Part shown: piece after piece, positions 188 to 51,566 of the stretch
Layout: every line of letters starts with the position of its first letter
Position numbering within the stretch: position 1 is the stretch's first letter
NCBI GenBank assembly: GCA_044337105.1
Contig: JBIIOE010000002.1
Coordinates: forward strand, 5,511 to 69,510
Reading direction: 5' to 3'
DNA: 64,000 bases
Origin: Bdellovibrionota bacterium
GTDB lineage: Bacteria > Bdellovibrionota_C > UBA2361 > OMII01
The notes under the pieces: generated by a model
What the model saw: only the letters and a program-made list of their open reading frames with translations
What the model was told of the DNA's origin: nothing
The model's database searches: none
Position numbers and translations under genes: made by a program

Positions 188-514
188 CTACATCTTGACG
201 AGCTCTAGCCTGTATTTCGTCTCAGAATAACTCCCGCGCTGGTTGCCGCACATCAAATTGCGCTCGATCTGGCGCACTCCATCCTCGGACATGCCCATCT
301 TTTCGTAGAATCGGCGGGCTGACTCGTTGTCGCTCTCTACCCAAAGTATGAGCGATTTAACCTGCGGTCGGGTCTGCAGCTCGGTTAGCATCGACTGGAA
401 CAAGGCGCTGCCTACACCGTGCCGATGGTACTCGGGTCGGATCGCCAGCATTGAAAGCTCGACCGTCCCGCGGGCGTACCCAATACTGGGGATAATGCTC
501 GGCCCGAAGCTCAA
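188..514 (-). CDS. GNAT family N-acetyltransferase, possibly N-terminally truncated as predicted
   Basis: Acetyl-CoA-binding motif A (R/Q-x-x-G-x-G/A: 'RHGVGSALF') is present. At 108 aa it is shorter than a typical GNAT, so the start codon is uncertain. Confidence 0.6.
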   Translation of the reverse strand: MSFGPSIIPSIGYARGTVELSMLAIRPEYHRHGVGSALFQSMLTELQTRPQVKSLILWVESDNESARRFYEKMGMSEDGVRQIERNLMCGNQRGSYSETKYRLELVKM

Positions 515-518
515 GAAG

Positions 519-710
519 CCTGGGGAAGCGAGGCAAAACCTACCTGTAGCGAGAAAGTGGAGGTTGGGTCGATATTCGATTTTCGCGATATGGAAAAACC
601 GCAGGTGTATCCTCTGCGATACACTGAGGATTTTTCCATGTCACGAAAATTGAATAACAACCCAACATCCGCTTTCGCAGCAGCGAGGTTTTTTGCCTCG
701 CTTCCCTAGG
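519..710 (+). repeat. family-1 inverted-repeat element, full-length copy A (~190 bp, MITE/REP-like)
   Basis: Ends CCTGGGGAAGCGAGGCAAAACCTACC ... GGTTTTTTGCCTCGCTTCCCTAGG are inverted repeats of each other. The core contains the imperfect palindrome TGGAAAAACCGCAGGTGTATCC..GATACACTGAGGATTTTTCCA. Intergenic, just upstream of the GNAT gene. Confidence 0.8.
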
Positions 711-727
711 GTAATCAGACTGTGGCT

Positions 728-3770: not shown

Positions 3771-4850
3771 TCAGGGATGCCCTGTATCGGGGTGTTCTTG
3801 CTTGCTCAGTGCCTTTGCGATAATTCGAGCCGCTTGGGCGTGCCCGACGGTGCTAAGATGCCTGTCAGCCTCTGAATAGAGGGGTTCGCCGCGCCATGCG
3901 ACGAATTCAGGATATAGATCCACGACCTCAAGACCCTCTTCGCGGCAGATCGTGAGAGCAGCTTCGTCGAGATGTGAGCGAGGGGTGTTCTGCATATCGT
4001 TGTGGGATGGGATGACGATAGCGCTAGGACGGATGGAGTGCTCGAGGGCGACCCTCTTGAATTCCCTCAACACGAGCTTCATCAGTATCTGAGCTTTTCG
4101 ATATTCCTGCTCGTCGGGAATATCGTCGGTGGTCTTGTCGTTGAACAGGATTTCGGAGATGTGTTCCTCCGTTTCCTCCGGTAGAAAGTGGCCGGTCGTG
4201 ATGAGCCGTAACGCCATCGGGAGTCTGAAGGTCGGAATGATCTGTTCGATCGGATTTGGGTGTAGTGGCCTCAAGCTACCATCGTCGGCGTTGATCTCGA
4301 AGAGGTGGTTCTTGAGCAGGTCATTGAAATCGTTTGACGGGTACAGCGAAAAAAGTGCTTGAGACGGCGCAAGCGGCAATCCATACCGTTTGAAAGCTAG
4401 CAGCGACTGATCAGGTCCGTAGCCTTGTACCCCCATGTTGTAGACTTCTCGACCAGTCAGGAGCTTTTCGAGCTGCTGGGGGAACGTGTCCCTCGGCTCT
4501 ACAATCAAACCCATCGGAAATGAATCCCCCGAGACGGTGATCAGGTGCCTTCCCGAGTGTGTTGGCTTCTCGTCACGAAAGCCATCGGCGTTGATGTGAT
4601 GGGTTTCGTTGGGGATCATACGGAAGAGAGTTTCCGTATCGAGTGTAAAGAAGGTGATACCCTTAGTGCCGCCAACGCCTTTGCCTACGAGTTGGTAGGT
4701 AGGCCACACCCCCCATACCTTCATTGAGAGTTCGGAAAACAGAACACACAGTGTTGCTATAGCACACCACTTCGCTACGAATTTAAAGAGAGCCAGCATA
4801 CATCCTGATGTACCATCCCAACGAGCTCTACAGAAGGAGCGAAATGTCAT
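3771..4850 (-). CDS. SGNH/GDSL-type hydrolase (AlgX/AlgJ-like esterase/acyltransferase) with N-terminal membrane anchor
   Basis: GDS block 'ITVSGDSF' near the N-terminus and a C-terminal 'DRHLSTVGH' (DxxH catalytic block). Hydrophobic N-terminus. Confidence 0.6.
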   Translation of the reverse strand: MTFRSFCRARWDGTSGCMLALFKFVAKWCAIATLCVLFSELSMKVWGVWPTYQLVGKGVGGTKGITFFTLDTETLFRMIPNETHHINADGFRDEKPTHSGRHLITVSGDSFPMGLIVEPRDTFPQQLEKLLTGREVYNMGVQGYGPDQSLLAFKRYGLPLAPSQALFSLYPSNDFNDLLKNHLFEINADDGSLRPLHPNPIEQIIPTFRLPMALRLITTGHFLPEETEEHISEILFNDKTTDDIPDEQEYRKAQILMKLVLREFKRVALEHSIRPSAIVIPSHNDMQNTPRSHLDEAALTICREEGLEVVDLYPEFVAWRGEPLYSEADRHLSTVGHAQAARIIAKALSKQEHPDTGHP

Positions 4851-5235: not shown

Positions 5236-7725
5236 GTGTGTATGAGGTTGTATCTAAAGACGGTCGTGGCACTTTGCCTCGTCACGACCTGCCTTCTTCG
5301 ATCCACGGGTAGGGCGGCAGCACAGGCCGCGTCCTTTACTGTAATGCGGGTGACATCTCTTGCCGATTCCGGAGCAGGAACTCTGCGGGAGTGTGTCTCG
5401 AAGGGATTCCCACGGGTGTGTGTGTTCGAGGTCTCCGGTCGTATCAAATTGTCGAGTGATCTCGTGATTACTCAGCCTGATCTCATAATTGCGGGGCAAA
5501 CCGCTCCGTCGCCCGGAATACTCGTCAGTAATGCCGGAATTAGGGTGAAGAGTCACCATGTTCGCATAGAGCACATCGCCGTTCGCGCGGGAGATGACAA
5601 ATCCGGGCCGGACCCTCGAAGTCGCGACAGTATGAGTATCCAGGGGTCATCGGCTTACGAGGTTAAGCTCAAGAACCTCTCGATATCGTGGGGAGTGGAC
5701 GAGAACTTTTCGACCTACCAGGGTATAAAGAACGTAACGGTAGAGAACTCCATTATCTCTGAGGGGTTGATGTACTCGTTGCATCCGAAGGGGCACCACA
5801 GTATGGGAGCCCTGGTCGGCGAGACAGCACGAAGTGTCATCTTCAGGAACAATCTCTTCGCGGTCAACAATGACCGCAACATACGTTGGAAGTTTGATAC
5901 GACGGGGGCCATGATCAACAACGTCATATACGGATGGGGGGGCACGTCATCGTGGAATACGACGAATCTTTCCGACACCGACGGGGCGAACAAAGCCAAC
6001 GTTTTGGATATCATCGGAAACAGGTATATTCCGGGGCCTCACGGTCTGCAGACGGCGTACGCAGTGTATTCATCCAAAGTCCCGAGCAATTCTAAGATAT
6101 ATCTCGCGGACAATATCGCTTCACGACTCACGAACGTACCGTCTTCCTTTTTGGTGAAGACTCCCAACTTCGGCATCTCGGATGTGATGCCGGTCGCGGA
6201 TGCGTATGAGTATGTTTTGGCCAACGCAGGTAGTCGGCCATGGGATCGCAACGCCGATGACATTCGTGTGATCTCGGGAGTCAAAGCTCGAACGCTGAAG
6301 CTCCGCAACTCTGTAGGCGCTTGGCCTGCATATGAGGTTAACCGCAAGCCGGTGGAGATACCGGATGGAGCGGTGGGGCTCGATCGAATCAACTCAGTCC
6401 TCGCATCGTGCGAAAAATCTTCTGGTTCGACAGTTGAAGCAACGTCGACACCTCCCGTAGTGGCGACAGCCACTCCGCGACCACCGAGCGCTCCGACGCA
6501 GGTCGCTACACCGGTTGTGGCACCGGTAGCAACGCTAGTGCCCTCAACGCCTCCGACAGGGAGTCCGAGCGCACCAGGGATATCTCGCGGCCCTTCTGCG
6601 GCGCGAGCTTATACGGTGGTCAAGGTTACATCGCTTGCGGATGCAGGACAGGGAACGCTGCGGGACTGCGTGGAGAAGCCGTTTCCCCGAGTGTGCGTGT
6701 TCGAGGTTTCTGGTGGTATCAAACTGACCCGGAATCTAGTCGTCGACCAACCCAACCTCGTAGTAGCGGGACAGACAGCGCCTTCTCCAGGGATTGTGTT
6801 GACTAATGCGGGAATTGTGGTCAGGAGTCACGACGTACGAGTCGAGCACCTGAGTGTGCGTAGCGGAGATGCTCCTGATGGGCCAGCGCCGGCGTCTCGG
6901 CGCAGCATCAGCGTCCGGGGCTCTTTAGCGCACGACGTAAGGTTTAAGAACCTCTCAGTTTCGTGGGCAGTGGCTGAGAATATACAGACGGCAGGGCCAG
7001 TAAAGAATGTGGTGTTCGAGAACTGTATCATCTCAGAGGCTCTACACCGTTCGATACATCCCAAAGGAGCTCACAGCATGGGAGTTTCGGTAAATCAGAG
7101 GGCTCGAGGGGTGCGCTTTGTCGGGAATCTTTTGGCTGCTAATGGAGACCGTAACATTAGCTGGCAGTACGATACTCGTGGCGAGATGATCAACAACGTC
7201 ATCTACGGATGGGGAAATGCTAGTTCGCGGAATACGACCAATATCTCCGATCCGAGCAATGCGGGTAGAGCGACAGTGCTGGATGCCATCGGAAATGTCT
7301 TTCTTGCGGGTCCGCAAGGGATGAGTAGGCCATACGCCTTCTATTCGGCAAGCACTCCGAGGGGATCAAAGATCTTCCTGAGTGACAACATCGCGCCACG
7401 ACTTACCAACATAGGGTCAAAGTATCGGGTCAGGCGGCGAAGCTTTGCGGGAGCGACCGCAGCGCCGGCATCGACAACTTTGGAGTCGGTGCTCCGAAGT
7501 GCCGGAGCTCGTCCGTGGGATCGCAATCCGGATGACGCTAGGGTGATAGAAGGGGTCAGGTCACGCTCTCTGCGAATACGCAATAGGGTAGGGGCATGGC
7601 CTCTGTATGCCAGAAACGGGCGCAGCATCCAGATGGCAGAGGCGTTGATTACGCAGGAGCGTCTCGATCGGGCGCTACCGCTCTTCGAAGTGCAAATGGG
7701 TGCTCCCACGTTGCCCGCTTTTTGA
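5236..7725 (+). CDS. secreted protein with two tandem pectate-lyase-like right-handed beta-helix domains joined by a Pro/Thr-rich linker
   Basis: Signal peptide. Each half (aa ~30-400 and ~455-829) carries 'DSMSIQGSS..VKLKNLSISWGVDEN' (compare PL1 'D..I.....NVWIDH.S.S..D') and 'DRNIRWKFD..GAMINNVIYGWG' (PL1 'R.P..R.G...NN.Y'). The two halves are about 70% identical. Confidence 0.6.
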   Translation: MCMRLYLKTVVALCLVTTCLLRSTGRAAAQAASFTVMRVTSLADSGAGTLRECVSKGFPRVCVFEVSGRIKLSSDLVITQPDLIIAGQTAPSPGILVSNAGIRVKSHHVRIEHIAVRAGDDKSGPDPRSRDSMSIQGSSAYEVKLKNLSISWGVDENFSTYQGIKNVTVENSIISEGLMYSLHPKGHHSMGALVGETARSVIFRNNLFAVNNDRNIRWKFDTTGAMINNVIYGWGGTSSWNTTNLSDTDGANKANVLDIIGNRYIPGPHGLQTAYAVYSSKVPSNSKIYLADNIASRLTNVPSSFLVKTPNFGISDVMPVADAYEYVLANAGSRPWDRNADDIRVISGVKARTLKLRNSVGAWPAYEVNRKPVEIPDGAVGLDRINSVLASCEKSSGSTVEATSTPPVVATATPRPPSAPTQVATPVVAPVATLVPSTPPTGSPSAPGISRGPSAARAYTVVKVTSLADAGQGTLRDCVEKPFPRVCVFEVSGGIKLTRNLVVDQPNLVVAGQTAPSPGIVLTNAGIVVRSHDVRVEHLSVRSGDAPDGPAPASRRSISVRGSLAHDVRFKNLSVSWAVAENIQTAGPVKNVVFENCIISEALHRSIHPKGAHSMGVSVNQRARGVRFVGNLLAANGDRNISWQYDTRGEMINNVIYGWGNASSRNTTNISDPSNAGRATVLDAIGNVFLAGPQGMSRPYAFYSASTPRGSKIFLSDNIAPRLTNIGSKYRVRRRSFAGATAAPASTTLESVLRSAGARPWDRNPDDARVIEGVRSRSLRIRNRVGAWPLYARNGRSIQMAEALITQERLDRALPLFEVQMGAPTLPAF

Positions 7726-13262: not shown

Positions 13263-13433
13263 ATCACCTCCGTATACGACGGTTGCTCAATAGCTTTAGA
13301 CCGTAACAGAGGGGCATGTTTCGCCCGTATGATACGGGTTCGGTGGTATGGACATTGAGAGTGTCCGAAGTCGAAAAAGAACGGACTCGAGAAGAGGCGA
13401 GAGATCGGTGAATACGCTCGTCATCGTACTAAC

Positions 13434-13502
13434 CTATAGTGATGTTGAGCAAAAGCCTTGCCGGTTTTACTGGTACGGACTTTTGCACATCGCTATAGCG
13501 TT
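13434..13502. repeat. hairpin repeat, family 2, copy 2 (hairpin-1 module only)
   Basis: CTATAGTGATGT...ACATCGCTATAG stem with loop GAGCAAAAGCCTTGCCGGTTTTACTGGTACGGACTTTTGC. Near-identical to 21059..21122. Confidence 0.7.
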
Positions 13503-20976: not shown

Positions 20977-21122
20977 ATAGCGTTCACCAAAAGTCCGTAG
21001 CGAGATCACGACTTTTGGAGAACGCTATCGATTCGCGGATGCGAATCAAAACAACAACCTATAGTGATGTACAGCAAAAGCCTTGCCAGTTTTACTGGCA
21101 CGGACTTTTGCACATCGCTATA
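20977..21122. repeat. hairpin repeat, family 2, copy 1 (three stacked hairpins)
   Basis: The first hairpin is 20977..21028, a 19-bp stem ATAGCGTTCaCCAAAAGTC/GACTTTTGGaGAACGCTAT. A 7-bp hairpin GATTCGC-GGAT-GCGAATC follows. The third hairpin is 21059..21122, with the same TATAGTGATGT/ACATCGCTATA module as copy 2. Confidence 0.7.
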
Positions 21123-21614
21123 GACCCAGTAAAGGCGCCCGCTCCGTTCTTGAGTACGGCAGTCGTCCATGTTACATGGATATGGTTTGGGGCGTAGTTC
21201 CCCTCAAATTTGGGTCTCTCGCACTTCTCTGGCGAGCTTGTGGAGTACTCGAGAGAGTCTCTGCATGAGTGACGCTACGTACCTGCAAATTACGACTTTA
21301 GGCAGTATCTAGTCCCGCCTGTTAGAGGCTTAATCTCAGCGGATCTGTTTCCTGTTCTTTTACATCGCCGCATCGCCGTATGACCTGCGATTGGCTTCTG
21401 TAGTGGGTATGTACAAGTCCACCTGATTCATCTTTCGTGCTGACGAATTGTCGGCAGAAAAGAGGATCGGGGAGGAAGAGAGCTTATAAGGTTTTTTGAA
21501 CCTCCTGCGTCAGAGCACTTTACGTTGCCTGTGTGCGCTCCCTCGTTCGTCTTTTGGGGTGAACAGGGGAGCGCACATTGGATGCGTGTGTTTTTTCGCT
21601 AGAGGAGACCAATA

Positions 21615-24699: not shown

Positions 24700-24790
24700 G
24701 CAAGAAGTGAAGCAAAACCTACCCGCAGCGAGAAAGTGAAGGCTGGGTTGCTCTATTCGCTTTCGTAGCAGGGAGGCTCTTGCCTGGTAC
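24700..24790 (+). repeat. family-1 inverted-repeat element, short (ends-only) derivative, copy C
   Basis: GAAGCAAAACCTACCCGCAGCGAGAAAGTGAAGGCTGGGTTGC ... TTCGCTTTCGTAGCAGGGAGGCTCTTGCC. It matches both arms of the full-length copies but lacks the about 100-bp core. Confidence 0.7.
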
Positions 24791-24861
24791 GGTACCATAT
24801 GAATCCGCACTGAGCCACCTGTTGGGAGGGGCTTTGCCTTGCTGCCCTGGGTGTAGCGGTC

Positions 24862-35387: not shown

Positions 35388-35450
35388 ATCCAGGGAAGCG
35401 AGGCACAACCTACCCGTAGCAGGAAAGGGTTTTGCCTCGCTCACCTAGGT
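35388..35450 (+). repeat. family-1 inverted-repeat element, minimal hairpin derivative, copy D
   Basis: CCAGGGAAGCGAGGCACAACCTACCCGTAGCAGGAAAGGGTTTTGCCTCGCTCACCTAGG lies between the convergent stops of 34823..35383 and mltA. The two ends pair directly. Confidence 0.7.
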
Positions 35451-36676
35451 ACCAAGTACACGATACGAGCCGGATGCTGAATGATACCGGCGTAGCACTT
35501 TGCTTCGTCGCCACGGCCCCAAAATAGATCGACCCTATCTGTTCCTGTTATGGCGCCTCCCGAGTCCTGGTCGAGAACGAGGCGAGTTATCTCTACCTCT
35601 CGCAGAGGATCACCCGTGTCTTCCGACTCGTCGCTGAGTACCGGCTTCGAAAAGCTCAAGAGAGCCAGGGCTCCCTTGGGAGCATACTTTGGATCCGCTG
35701 CAATTGTTCGTCCTGGTGTCGCGGGGACGCCCAGGGCTGTGATCGCGCGCTGTGGAGACTTGTTGAAGAATACGTAGCTTGGATTTCGGTAGAGTAGTTC
35801 GTTGCGCTCGTGTTCGGGCATCTCACGCAGTGCCGCTTCGACCCGTTGCATCGTGATCTTCTTCGGAGCTATGCGTTCTTTGAGGAACTTGCCAATCGCT
35901 TCGTATTTTCGTCCATTTTTGTCGGCGTAGGTAATGAAGACCTCACTACCGTCTTCGAGTCGTACCGTTCCAGAGCCCTGAATGTGTAGAAAGAACGCCT
36001 CTATTAGATCTACCCAGCAGAGTTCGAGGCGCCTCCCTTTCAAAACGCCGCCTCCATCTATCTCTTCACGCGTGTAATAGGGGAGCACTTTTCCGTCGTG
36101 AAGCCTTCCTTTGAGAGCATTCTCTCCTTTGAATCGCTCGGAGAACTGCTTCAGATCTATCGTGACTAAGTCGGTAGGTTTCGCATACAGAGGATGTGAG
36201 TGGCTTGAGGTGCGAACAGTGCTGCCGCTGATGATCGGTTCGAAGTAGCTCGTGAGTAGGATCTCTCCCCACTGTTTACCTCCGTATATCTCGAAAAAGC
36301 GAAATCGACTCCGGACAAAATCGATCTTTTCCTCGGTCGACGAAGCGTGTCCGAGCACGTGGTGAAGCTCCTCTAAGGCCTTGGCATATTCCCCGCGTGT
36401 AACTGTGACCGGCCCAAACCGCATCCGTGTCTCAGACGTCCGTTGTAATACAGGACGTTGTGCTTCAATTGCATGCATCAATCCGTCGAAATCGAGATCG
36501 TCCGCGACAGGAGTAGATGTGATTTCCCTAAAAGCGGACTCGGGTCCGGGAACCGCTGGACGAGCGCACGCGGTGAGCACTGTAAGGCCCACTAATCCCC
36601 AGATTTGGCAGAGGAGAATGCCTCTTCCTTTGATGAAATTCGCCCGAAAGAGATTCAGAAATTTCATAGTCACCAT
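35441..36676 (-). CDS. mltA: membrane-bound lytic murein transglycosylase A
   Basis: MltA domain plus a 3D domain ('FFLHIQGSGTVRLEDGSEV', 'GVPATPGRTIAADPKYAPKGALALL'). Confidence 0.85.
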   Translation of the reverse strand: MVTMKFLNLFRANFIKGRGILLCQIWGLVGLTVLTACARPAVPGPESAFREITSTPVADDLDFDGLMHAIEAQRPVLQRTSETRMRFGPVTVTRGEYAKALEELHHVLGHASSTEEKIDFVRSRFRFFEIYGGKQWGEILLTSYFEPIISGSTVRTSSHSHPLYAKPTDLVTIDLKQFSERFKGENALKGRLHDGKVLPYYTREEIDGGGVLKGRRLELCWVDLIEAFFLHIQGSGTVRLEDGSEVFITYADKNGRKYEAIGKFLKERIAPKKITMQRVEAALREMPEHERNELLYRNPSYVFFNKSPQRAITALGVPATPGRTIAADPKYAPKGALALLSFSKPVLSDESEDTGDPLREVEITRLVLDQDSGGAITGTDRVDLFWGRGDEAKCYAGIIQHPARIVYLVPR

Positions 36677-40777: not shown

Positions 40778-41143
40778 ATGTCGAATAGAAAATTGTACGT
40801 AGGTAACCTGCCGTTCTCCCTTGAGGACGGTGACCTCGCACAGCTGTTTAGTCAAGCTGGAACCGTTGTATCAGCACGTGTTGTGCTCGATCCAGCAACG
40901 GGCCGCAAGCGTGGCTTCGGCTTTGTCGAGATGTCGAGCGAGGACGAGGCTGAAGCGGCAAAGAATTCGCTTAACGGCACTGATGTTGATGGTCGTTCTA
41001 TCGTTGTTGATATCGCTCAGGAGCGCCCTCGTCGCGAAGGCGGCGGAGGAGGCGGTGGCGGTTTCCGTGGCGGAGATCGTCCTCGTCGGCACGGCGGCGG
41101 TGGTGGTGGTGGCTACGGTGGTGGTGGCGGCGGACGTCGCTAA
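40778..41143 (+). CDS. RRM-type RNA-binding protein with Gly-rich (RGG/GGYGG) C-terminal tail
   Basis: RNP2 'KLYVGNLPF', RNP1 'RGFGFVEM', then 'GGGGGGGGFRGGDRPRRHGGGGGGGYGGGGGGRR'. Confidence 0.9.
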   Translation: MSNRKLYVGNLPFSLEDGDLAQLFSQAGTVVSARVVLDPATGRKRGFGFVEMSSEDEAEAAKNSLNGTDVDGRSIVVDIAQERPRREGGGGGGGGFRGGDRPRRHGGGGGGGYGGGGGGRR

Positions 41144-41146
41144 TCT

Positions 41147-41338
41147 CCCCTAGGGAAGCGAGGCAACCCCCCCCTGCTACGAAAGCGGATCTTGGGTTGC
41201 TCTCCGACTTTCGCGATGTGGAAAAATCCTCAGTGTATCGCAGCGGATACACCTGCGGATTTTCCACATCGAGAAAATCGAATATCACCCAACCTCCACT
41301 TTCTCGCTACGGGTAGGTTTTGCTTCGCTTCCCAAGCT
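41147..41338 (-). repeat. family-1 inverted-repeat element, full-length copy B (opposite orientation to copy A)
   Basis: The reverse complement aligns along about 190 bp with 519..710, including the central imperfect palindrome TGGAAAAATCC..CAGCGGATACACCTGCGGATTTTCCA. It starts 4 nt after the RRM gene stop. Confidence 0.8.
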
Positions 41339-41412
41339 CGAGCGTCGCAGCATCTTTGCGGCGCTCGACTTCTGTTCCGACCGTAGTCTTTTCTTAAATC
41401 CCTTCCAAGATT

Positions 41413-51459: not shown

Positions 51460-51566
51460 GGGGCGAAGCGAGGACATAGAGCCTTCGTCGCGCGTGTTTC
51501 TATCAGGAAGCGAGGCGAGGCCTCTACTGCCGCAGCAGGGAGGGGTTTTGCCCTGCTTCCATAAGG
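51460..51566. repeat. family-1 inverted-repeat element, degenerate copy E
   Basis: GGGGCGAAGCGAGGACATAG...GGAAGCGAGGCGAGG...GCAGCAGGGAGGGGTTTTGCCCTGCTTCC retains the family end motifs. Intergenic, between the SRPBCC gene and tlyA. Confidence 0.55.

Follow-up and report, generated by a model that had tools for sequence, protein, structure and literature searches.

The window, the whole 64,000-nucleotide stretch of DNA analyzed here, carries two similar, oppositely oriented repeats of about 190 nt (A and B), which raises the question of what kind of element they represent and how it spreads. We consider it very likely that they belong to a family of non-autonomous, non-coding miniature elements (MITEs) that insert at YTAG with a 4-bp target-site duplication (TSD) and would be mobilized in trans, perhaps by an IS5-group-like transposase. 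The element is small and non-coding, ends in terminal inverted repeats (TIRs) next to a TSD, is dispersed in many copies, and is present at some orthologous sites that are empty in relatives, in agreement with the non-autonomous miniature element put forward in the original prediction.

Two copies of a structured repeat

Copy A (window 519-710, + strand) and copy B (41147-41338, reverse-complemented) match over their full length with about 87% identity (87.4% across 191 nt by blastn). The two had been described as aligning base-for-base over ~190 bp; the end-to-end alignment stands, while the base-for-base agreement does not. Similarity ends abruptly at the element ends and the flanks are unrelated. 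The TIRs and the internal palindrome (window 591-638) quoted earlier for both copies are present. The exact cores are 524-705 (A) and 41154-41332 (B), with flanking 4-mers CTGG/CTAG and CTTG/CTAG, respectively. Two statements about their surroundings need correction: copy A is not strictly intergenic, as its left end adjoins a 5'-truncated GNAT gene, and B does not begin 4 nt after the stop codon of the RRM-protein gene (41141-41143), as its flanking CTAG begins 6 nt on.

520..523, + strand: left flanking 4-mer of A, CTGG, where A meets the truncated GNAT gene; the intact gene of the relative L061 reads CTAG here
524..705, + strand: copy A, full-length core of the probable MITE, 182 nt; canonical strand is the window + strand; termini GGAAGCGAGGCAAAACC / GGTTTTTTGCCTCGCTTCC; whole-length hairpin of -122 kcal/mol
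591..638, + strand: apical module of A, consisting of an A-run, a short stem-loop and a T-run (TGGAAAAACC...GGATTTTTCCA); terminator-like, and common to a second MITE family with other termini
706..709, + strand: right flanking 4-mer of A, CTAG, present beside the half-element in L061 too
41150..41153, - strand: presumed TSD copy flanking B on the right; CTAG, with the RRM stop codon 6 nt away
41154..41332, - strand: copy B, full-length core of the probable MITE, 179 nt; canonical strand is the window - strand; orthologous site empty in L055, L065-L069, L071 and L072
41333..41336, - strand: presumed TSD copy flanking B on the left; reads CTTG on the - strand, with one mismatch to CTAG

Each copy folds as one imperfect hairpin of ~190 nt. 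For copy A, the fold reaches -121.9 kcal/mol on the + strand (z = -14.8) and -113.9 kcal/mol on the - strand (z = -13.4), and none of 200 dinucleotide shuffles folded as well. Allowing up to 3 mismatches, the window has four occurrences of the 20-nt terminus GAAGCGAGGCAAAACCTACC, where chance would give 0.00. The abrupt ends, the shuffle-tested hairpin and the four terminus occurrences indicate that the repeat seen in A and B is real.

Besides A and B, the window holds three short or decayed relatives that had been missed in the original prediction, making five family members in 64 kb.

about 24703..24846, + strand: decayed composite of an apex-deleted element followed by a second right-terminus remnant, directly upstream of the start of an aminotransferase gene
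35394..35444, + strand: 51-nt short form, outer stem only; flanks CCAG/CTAG; the MltA stop codon lies inside
51506..51560, + strand: 55-nt degenerate short form; flanks ATCA/ATAA

The stop codon (35441-35443) of the MltA-like gene (35441-36676, - strand) falls in the right terminus of the 51-nt short form, and insertion thus replaced the original 3' end of this gene. The window has two further repeats. A 68-nt palindromic repeat unrelated to the family (13431-13498 and 21056-21123; 94% identical, CTATAG at both ends, -41 to -47 kcal/mol) is probably a second mini-MITE family, and an 89-nt direct repeat (5851-5939 and 7126-7214; 73% identical) inside an 829-aa ORF (5236-7725) is probably an internal protein repeat.

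Distribution across genomes

We searched one genome per species (185,579 species) for a degenerate 21-nt pattern taken from the left arm and obtained 53 loci. Ten MAGs from lakes and ponds, labeled Bdellovibrionota (Proteobacteria in older records), account for 51; the two remaining loci, in Shouchella and Ruminococcus, do not have the element. Copies were called with an nhmmer profile built from 24 full-length copies, pairing of termini by fuzzy regular expressions being unreliable on a palindrome. In the scanned loci there are ~25 full-length copies, 83-88% identical to copy A, besides many truncated, internally deleted or apex-expanded forms. Housekeeping DNA of the window is only 66-79% identical to that of these MAGs, and the elements are therefore more alike across species than the genomes that carry them.

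The population from which the window derives is absent from the species representatives scanned. Several metagenome samples contain it at 100% identity, often on contigs that break off within the element (L054, L059 and L060 end there). A G/C homopolymer run inside B (41167-41176) differs by one base from that of L054, the population being otherwise identical. Exact-protein look-ups with window proteins yielded only 100%-identical DNA from other samples, so that no strain-level polymorphism was seen.

These results place the family exclusively in uncultured freshwater Bdellovibrionota. A distant blastn search of a plasmid collection with the whole element gave no match, and the 17-nt terminus had a single chance match in a scan of viral contigs, without an element at that place. 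We found no description of this MITE family in the literature; it is a previously undescribed family of an ordinary kind of element.

Termini, target-site duplication and length variants

The element core is 179-182 nt with termini GGAAGCGAGGCAAAACC...GGTTTTGCCTCGCTTCC, and variants span 51 to about 260 nt. The TIRs (GGAAGCGAGGCAAAACC / GGTTTTGCCTCGCTTCC) are conserved across the 24 aligned copies, which with their flanks read YTAG-GGAAGCGAGGCAAAACCTACCCGTAGC ... GGGAGGGGTTTTGCCTCGCTTCC-YTAG (ends GGAAGCG...CGCTTCC). In copy L017c, both termini carry a compensated change of 4 bases.

On either side the flanking 4-mer is YTAG, in most cases CTAG, and a left TTAG is usually paired with a right TTAG: the first base (left/right) is T/T in 7 copies, T/C in 2, C/T in 2 and C/C in 20 (Fisher p = 4e-4). 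One near-identical subfamily has CTAG/CTAG in L024 and L030, and TTAG/TTAG in L034 and L037, with unrelated outer flanks. The presence of both states within one subfamily indicates that the 4-mers are target-derived direct repeats rather than inherited parts of the element, and on these alignments we read them as a 4-bp TSD of a YTAG target. Because CTAG is palindromic, most copies cannot separate a 4-bp TSD from a 2-bp TA TSD or from CTAG as part of the stem, and the length of 4 bp depends on copies flanked by TTAG..TTAG (4 exact and 3 near cases, and another from the second family). A duplication of TA only, of the IS630 type, is disfavored, since the base outside TA co-varies on both sides. 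In the canonical orientation, the non-palindromic TSDs are always TTAG..TTAG and never CTAA..CTAA (copies in L017, L034, L037, L045, L014 and others), which reflects either an orientation bias of insertion or an extension of the wobble rule described below to the duplication.

Short forms of 51-57 nt (D and E of the window, L005 and L028) consist of the outer stem only, with the junction between two copies of GYAGC. This suggests that short forms (51-85 nt) may be internal deletions that arose by slippage between GYAGC direct repeats at the stem base. In longer forms the apex or its vicinity carries additional palindromic modules, about 25, 58 or 65 nt long. The ~46-nt apical module itself (A-run, GTATCC stem-loop, T-run) recurs in a second family of ~185 nt with termini CAGGGTGGTGAAAAAT (L004:6434-6627, L048:2-189, L014:3381-3576 and, in reverse, L027:7252-7392), which is flanked by CTAG/CTAG or TTAG/TTAG and is absent from the window. 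L017:4883-6703 contains two copies in direct orientation, 1.4 kb apart, around a 439-codon stop-free frame without a Pfam match. One of these copies has hybrid termini (CGAGGC left, GCCGGC right), which suggests, from sequence, that they may stem from recombination between copies.

No reading frame is conserved across copies, as 1-nt indels shift the stop-free frame between them; we therefore rejected a coding role for the ORFs of 50-96 aa that overlap copies. Rfam gave no match in the window at gathering thresholds, and the best match of a permissive search was a generic hairpin (mir-548, 28.5 bits against a threshold of 90). A tRNA/tmRNA scan found none.

Occupied and empty sites

The RRM gene and a gene for a 492-aa protein are convergent neighbors in the window and in its relatives. 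Site B is empty in L072, L071 (the EUL_302 MAG), L065-L069 and L055, whose 492-aa proteins are 88%, 86%, 89% and 79% identical to that of the window, respectively; in these four lineages the intergenic region is about 85-125 nt and the element is undetectable. L072, L071 and L065 keep the terminator-like hairpin of the window (CGAGCGCCGC...GCGACGCTCG), and L055 has a different one.

41338..41368, no strand assigned: terminator-like hairpin that predates the insertion, in the gap where the RRM and 492-aa genes converge; conserved in relatives without the element

A clean insertion of ~190 nt separates this hairpin from the RRM stop codon in the window. When the core and one 4-mer are subtracted, the window reads AG-CTAG-GGGAGA, aligned with AG-GTCC-GGAGAGAC of L072. 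Judged from this alignment, copy B was inserted between the RRM stop codon and an older terminator hairpin. The RRM-domain protein gene (40778-41143) encodes a Gly/Arg-rich tail, and the protein is identical in at least 4 contigs from other samples.

Site A has a different history. The relative L061 (GCA_977097765.1; 87% nucleotide identity to the window) has, downstream of the antiporter gene, the right arm of the element only, then three genes and an intact GNAT gene of 181 aa. Relative to L061:4180-6840, window 188-727 lacks ~2.6 kb comprising a 164-aa ORF, an epimerase, a MarR regulator and the first ~73 GNAT codons, and copy A is located exactly at the deletion joint.

188..514, - strand: 5'-truncated GNAT acetyltransferase remnant adjoining A; Pfam match to profile positions 56-116 of 116 only

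At the junction, the window reads CGCTTCC/CCAG/GCTTCTTG and L061 reads GAGATC/CTAG/GCTTCTTG. The left end of A is joined exactly where the intact GNAT gene of L061 has ATC-CTAG-GCTTC, and CTAG pre-exists there. As the right arm of the element is present at the L061 site, the insertion at site A predates the split between the window and L061; the left end of A was later joined to the GNAT CTAG by either an adjacent deletion or recombination with a second copy.

A further locus is filled in L019 and empty in L001 (flanks 90% identical), with one junction visible since the L019 contig starts inside the element. L026 and L018 were rejected as an empty-site pair because they differ only by a 22-nt remnant indel, with no clean empty site. 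L026:2516-2549 is a 32-nt left-terminus remnant that is shortened by a further 22 nt in the 90%-identical L018 (about 4040-4063), and these lengths point to stepwise erosion of old copies. Between the window and L030, L047 or L012, intergenic DNA is too diverged for comparison at base level.

Pairing of one strand

The consensus hairpin of the 24-copy alignment has 71 pairs, with 97.1% of cells paired. Both sides have changed in 16 pairs, compared to 9.3 ± 1.5 in shuffles (none of 500 as high), and pairing falls to 36-56% when partners are slid by 1-3 columns.

Taking the + strand of copy A as the canonical strand, the non-Watson-Crick cells comprise 148 G-U and 21 A-C. In columns outside the scan pattern, variants present in at least two copies give 12 G-U pairs and 1 A-C pair, while singleton variants are 7 G-U and 10 A-C. 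The symmetry of the singletons and the 12:1 excess of G-U among common variants indicate that mutation is unbiased and spread is biased. The G/U-rich left arm is almost invariant (in columns 13-33 this is partly imposed by the scan pattern, elsewhere it is not), and variation in the C/A-rich right arm consists of transitions that produce wobble pairs. The consensus folds at -99.1 kcal/mol on the canonical strand and -66.3 kcal/mol on the other. The canonical strand folds better in 24/24 copies with RNA parameters and in 23/24 with DNA parameters, comparisons that are not independent tests because the copies share ancestry.

Neither this one-strand wobble nor the TTAG-only orientation is predicted by plain double-strand cut-and-paste. 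A tentative reading, to which we give a modest chance of being right, is that this family and the second family with the same apical module propagate through, or are selected as, a folded single strand of fixed polarity.

A separate proposal is that the element moves as single-stranded DNA by a Y1/HUH transposase (IS200/IS605 or REP/RAYT type), inserting 3' of YTAG and carrying its own right-end YTAG with no true duplication. REP/BIME (RAYT) and IS200/IS605-derived elements are likewise palindromic intergenic repeats with one strand active or folded, and such a process would fit the better hairpin of one strand in all 24 copies (consensus -99 vs. -66 kcal/mol), the preference for G-T/G-U over A-C among common variants, and flanking 4-mers that are asymmetric in one orientation only. 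The empty sites at B and at the GNAT gene fit one pre-existing tetranucleotide equally well. However, the right 4-mer tracks the left one within the subfamily described above (CTAG in L024/L030, TTAG in L034/L037), as expected for a duplication and not for the fixed right-end cleavage tetranucleotide of IS200/IS605-type elements, which have no TSD. Those elements also have separate subterminal hairpins, whereas the single hairpin here pairs the two ends of the element with each other. REPs measure 20-40 nt, frequently occur in clusters and lack a TSD, whereas members of this family are about 182 nt and single, with co-varying flanking 4-mers; size, organization and the TSD thus speak against the REP/BIME-like alternative that had been raised. 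In a non-exhaustive look we saw no TnpA or RAYT gene, including among the window ORFs. Overall, we regard movement by a Y1/HUH enzyme as improbable.

We hold in equally low regard the proposal that the repeats are primarily host-selected structured RNA (sRNA genes, transcript stabilizers or terminators), with mobility incidental or extinct, which corresponds to the small-RNA family of the original prediction. The strong covariation reported above would agree with it, as would G-U-rich, RNA-like substitution paths (e.g., GC->GU->AU), the location of copy B directly after a stop codon, and an apical module similar to a bidirectional intrinsic terminator and retained by two families whose termini differ, the stem of this module being short and A/T-rich (8 pairs, 3 of them G-C). 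Against it, orientation to neighboring genes is random (5' side, 10 same and 8 opposite; 3' side, 8 same and 12 opposite) and no sigma-70-like promoter was seen, which together argue against a simple role inside host mRNAs. There is also no Rfam match, sites that one lineage has filled are empty in its close relatives, many copies are half-elements or decayed or deleted forms, and the right arm of A has diverged from its L061 ortholog about as fast as the flanks.

That A and B are a chance palindrome or a simple segmental duplication without a family can be dismissed: just two full copies are in the window, but homology stops exactly at their ends, no shuffle folds comparably, and dozens of copies have different flanks in other genomes.

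Mobilization and comparison with known elements

The MITE reading thus remains the preferred one; the original prediction could have failed on a count of only two copies, a missing TSD, a stem without covariation or a match to a known family, and none of these was found. The two halves of the element are inverted copies of each other, so that either strand can fold as one long hairpin. In the mechanism that we propose, a transposase encoded elsewhere in the genome would bind the TIRs, the outer ~17-25 bp (GGAAGCGAGGCAAAACC...), and insertion at YTAG (mostly CTAG) duplicates 4 bp. The mobilizing enzyme would be an IS5-group-like DDE transposase acting in trans, whose gene should lie between GGAAGCGAGGC...GCCTCGCTTCC ends, with a 4-bp YTAR duplication outside them. 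This assignment is by analogy: a 4-bp YTAR-type duplication and a GGAAG terminus are found in IS5 and MITEPsy1 as well.

As originally predicted, no transposase adjoins the family in the window, and mobilization in trans is supported. Neither the window nor about 0.55 Mb of loci yielded an autonomous element with the family termini, and tblastn of the same sequences with an approximate E. coli IS5 InsH query gave no hit. Where an ORF lay between paired copies or beside a solo left end, Pfam searches assigned it to an ordinary gene or to no family, never to a transposase. IS copies are usually missing from MAG assemblies, and the failure to find a transposase is therefore weak evidence.

The terminus of IS5 begins with GGAAG. 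Its TSD is 4 bp with the motif YTAR, as in the family described here (PMC10359306). IS5 differs in being an autonomous element of ~1.2 kb that encodes a DDE transposase; no such gene with the family ends was found. A close parallel is MITEPsy1 of Pseudomonas syringae, which is non-coding, has the TIR GGAAGGTCTGAAAAAGCC (GGAAG, then an A-run) and a 4-nt CTAG/YTAA duplication, and is mobilized in trans, deriving from the IS5-family ISPsy2 (PMC3189936). By eye, the family terminus agrees with that of MITEPsy1/ISPsy2 at only 11/18 positions, GGAAG and the A-run being common to both (PMC3189936). IS701-family elements also have a 4-bp duplication, with an end consensus (---YACT) unlike these termini (PMC2266710). 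MITEPsy1 differs from the present family in its length (100 nt vs. about 182), in not being described as a whole-length hairpin, in belonging to a different phylum and in having a known parent IS.

Correia (NEMIS) elements of Neisseria and ERIC/IRU elements of enterobacteria target TA, compared to the 4-bp YTAG here. They resemble this family as intergenic MITEs of 100-200 bp with size variants produced by internal deletion or insertion, and their transcripts form long hairpins that alter the expression or stability of neighboring transcripts via RNase III or RNase E (PMC10969869). Their termini are different, and no promoter or IHF site is evident here. SPRITE, a small repeat of Streptococcus pneumoniae, has a motif like a Rho-independent terminator, to be compared with the A-run, stem-loop and T-run of the apical module (PMC10969869). 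It is unrelated in sequence and host, and the putative terminator stem here is short and A/T-rich.

Consequences for the genomes and for hairpin MITEs

The element affects these genomes in several ways. A 2.6-kb deletion with a truncated GNAT gene is associated with copy A, copy B adds a 190-nt hairpin to the 3' UTR of the RRM-protein gene, and a short form supplies a stop codon. The element also explains breaks in MAG contigs, several of which end inside it, and the family is usable as a lineage marker and helps in the annotation of these genomes. If the tentative single-strand reading is true, a MITE with a DDE-type 4-bp duplication would use a single-stranded DNA hairpin, or an RNA of defined strand, as an obligatory intermediate; alternatively, a strand-specific cellular role of the hairpin would decide which copies become founders. 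Mobilization of hairpin MITEs is poorly understood in bacteria, and the one-strand pairing signature, if confirmed, would bear on it.
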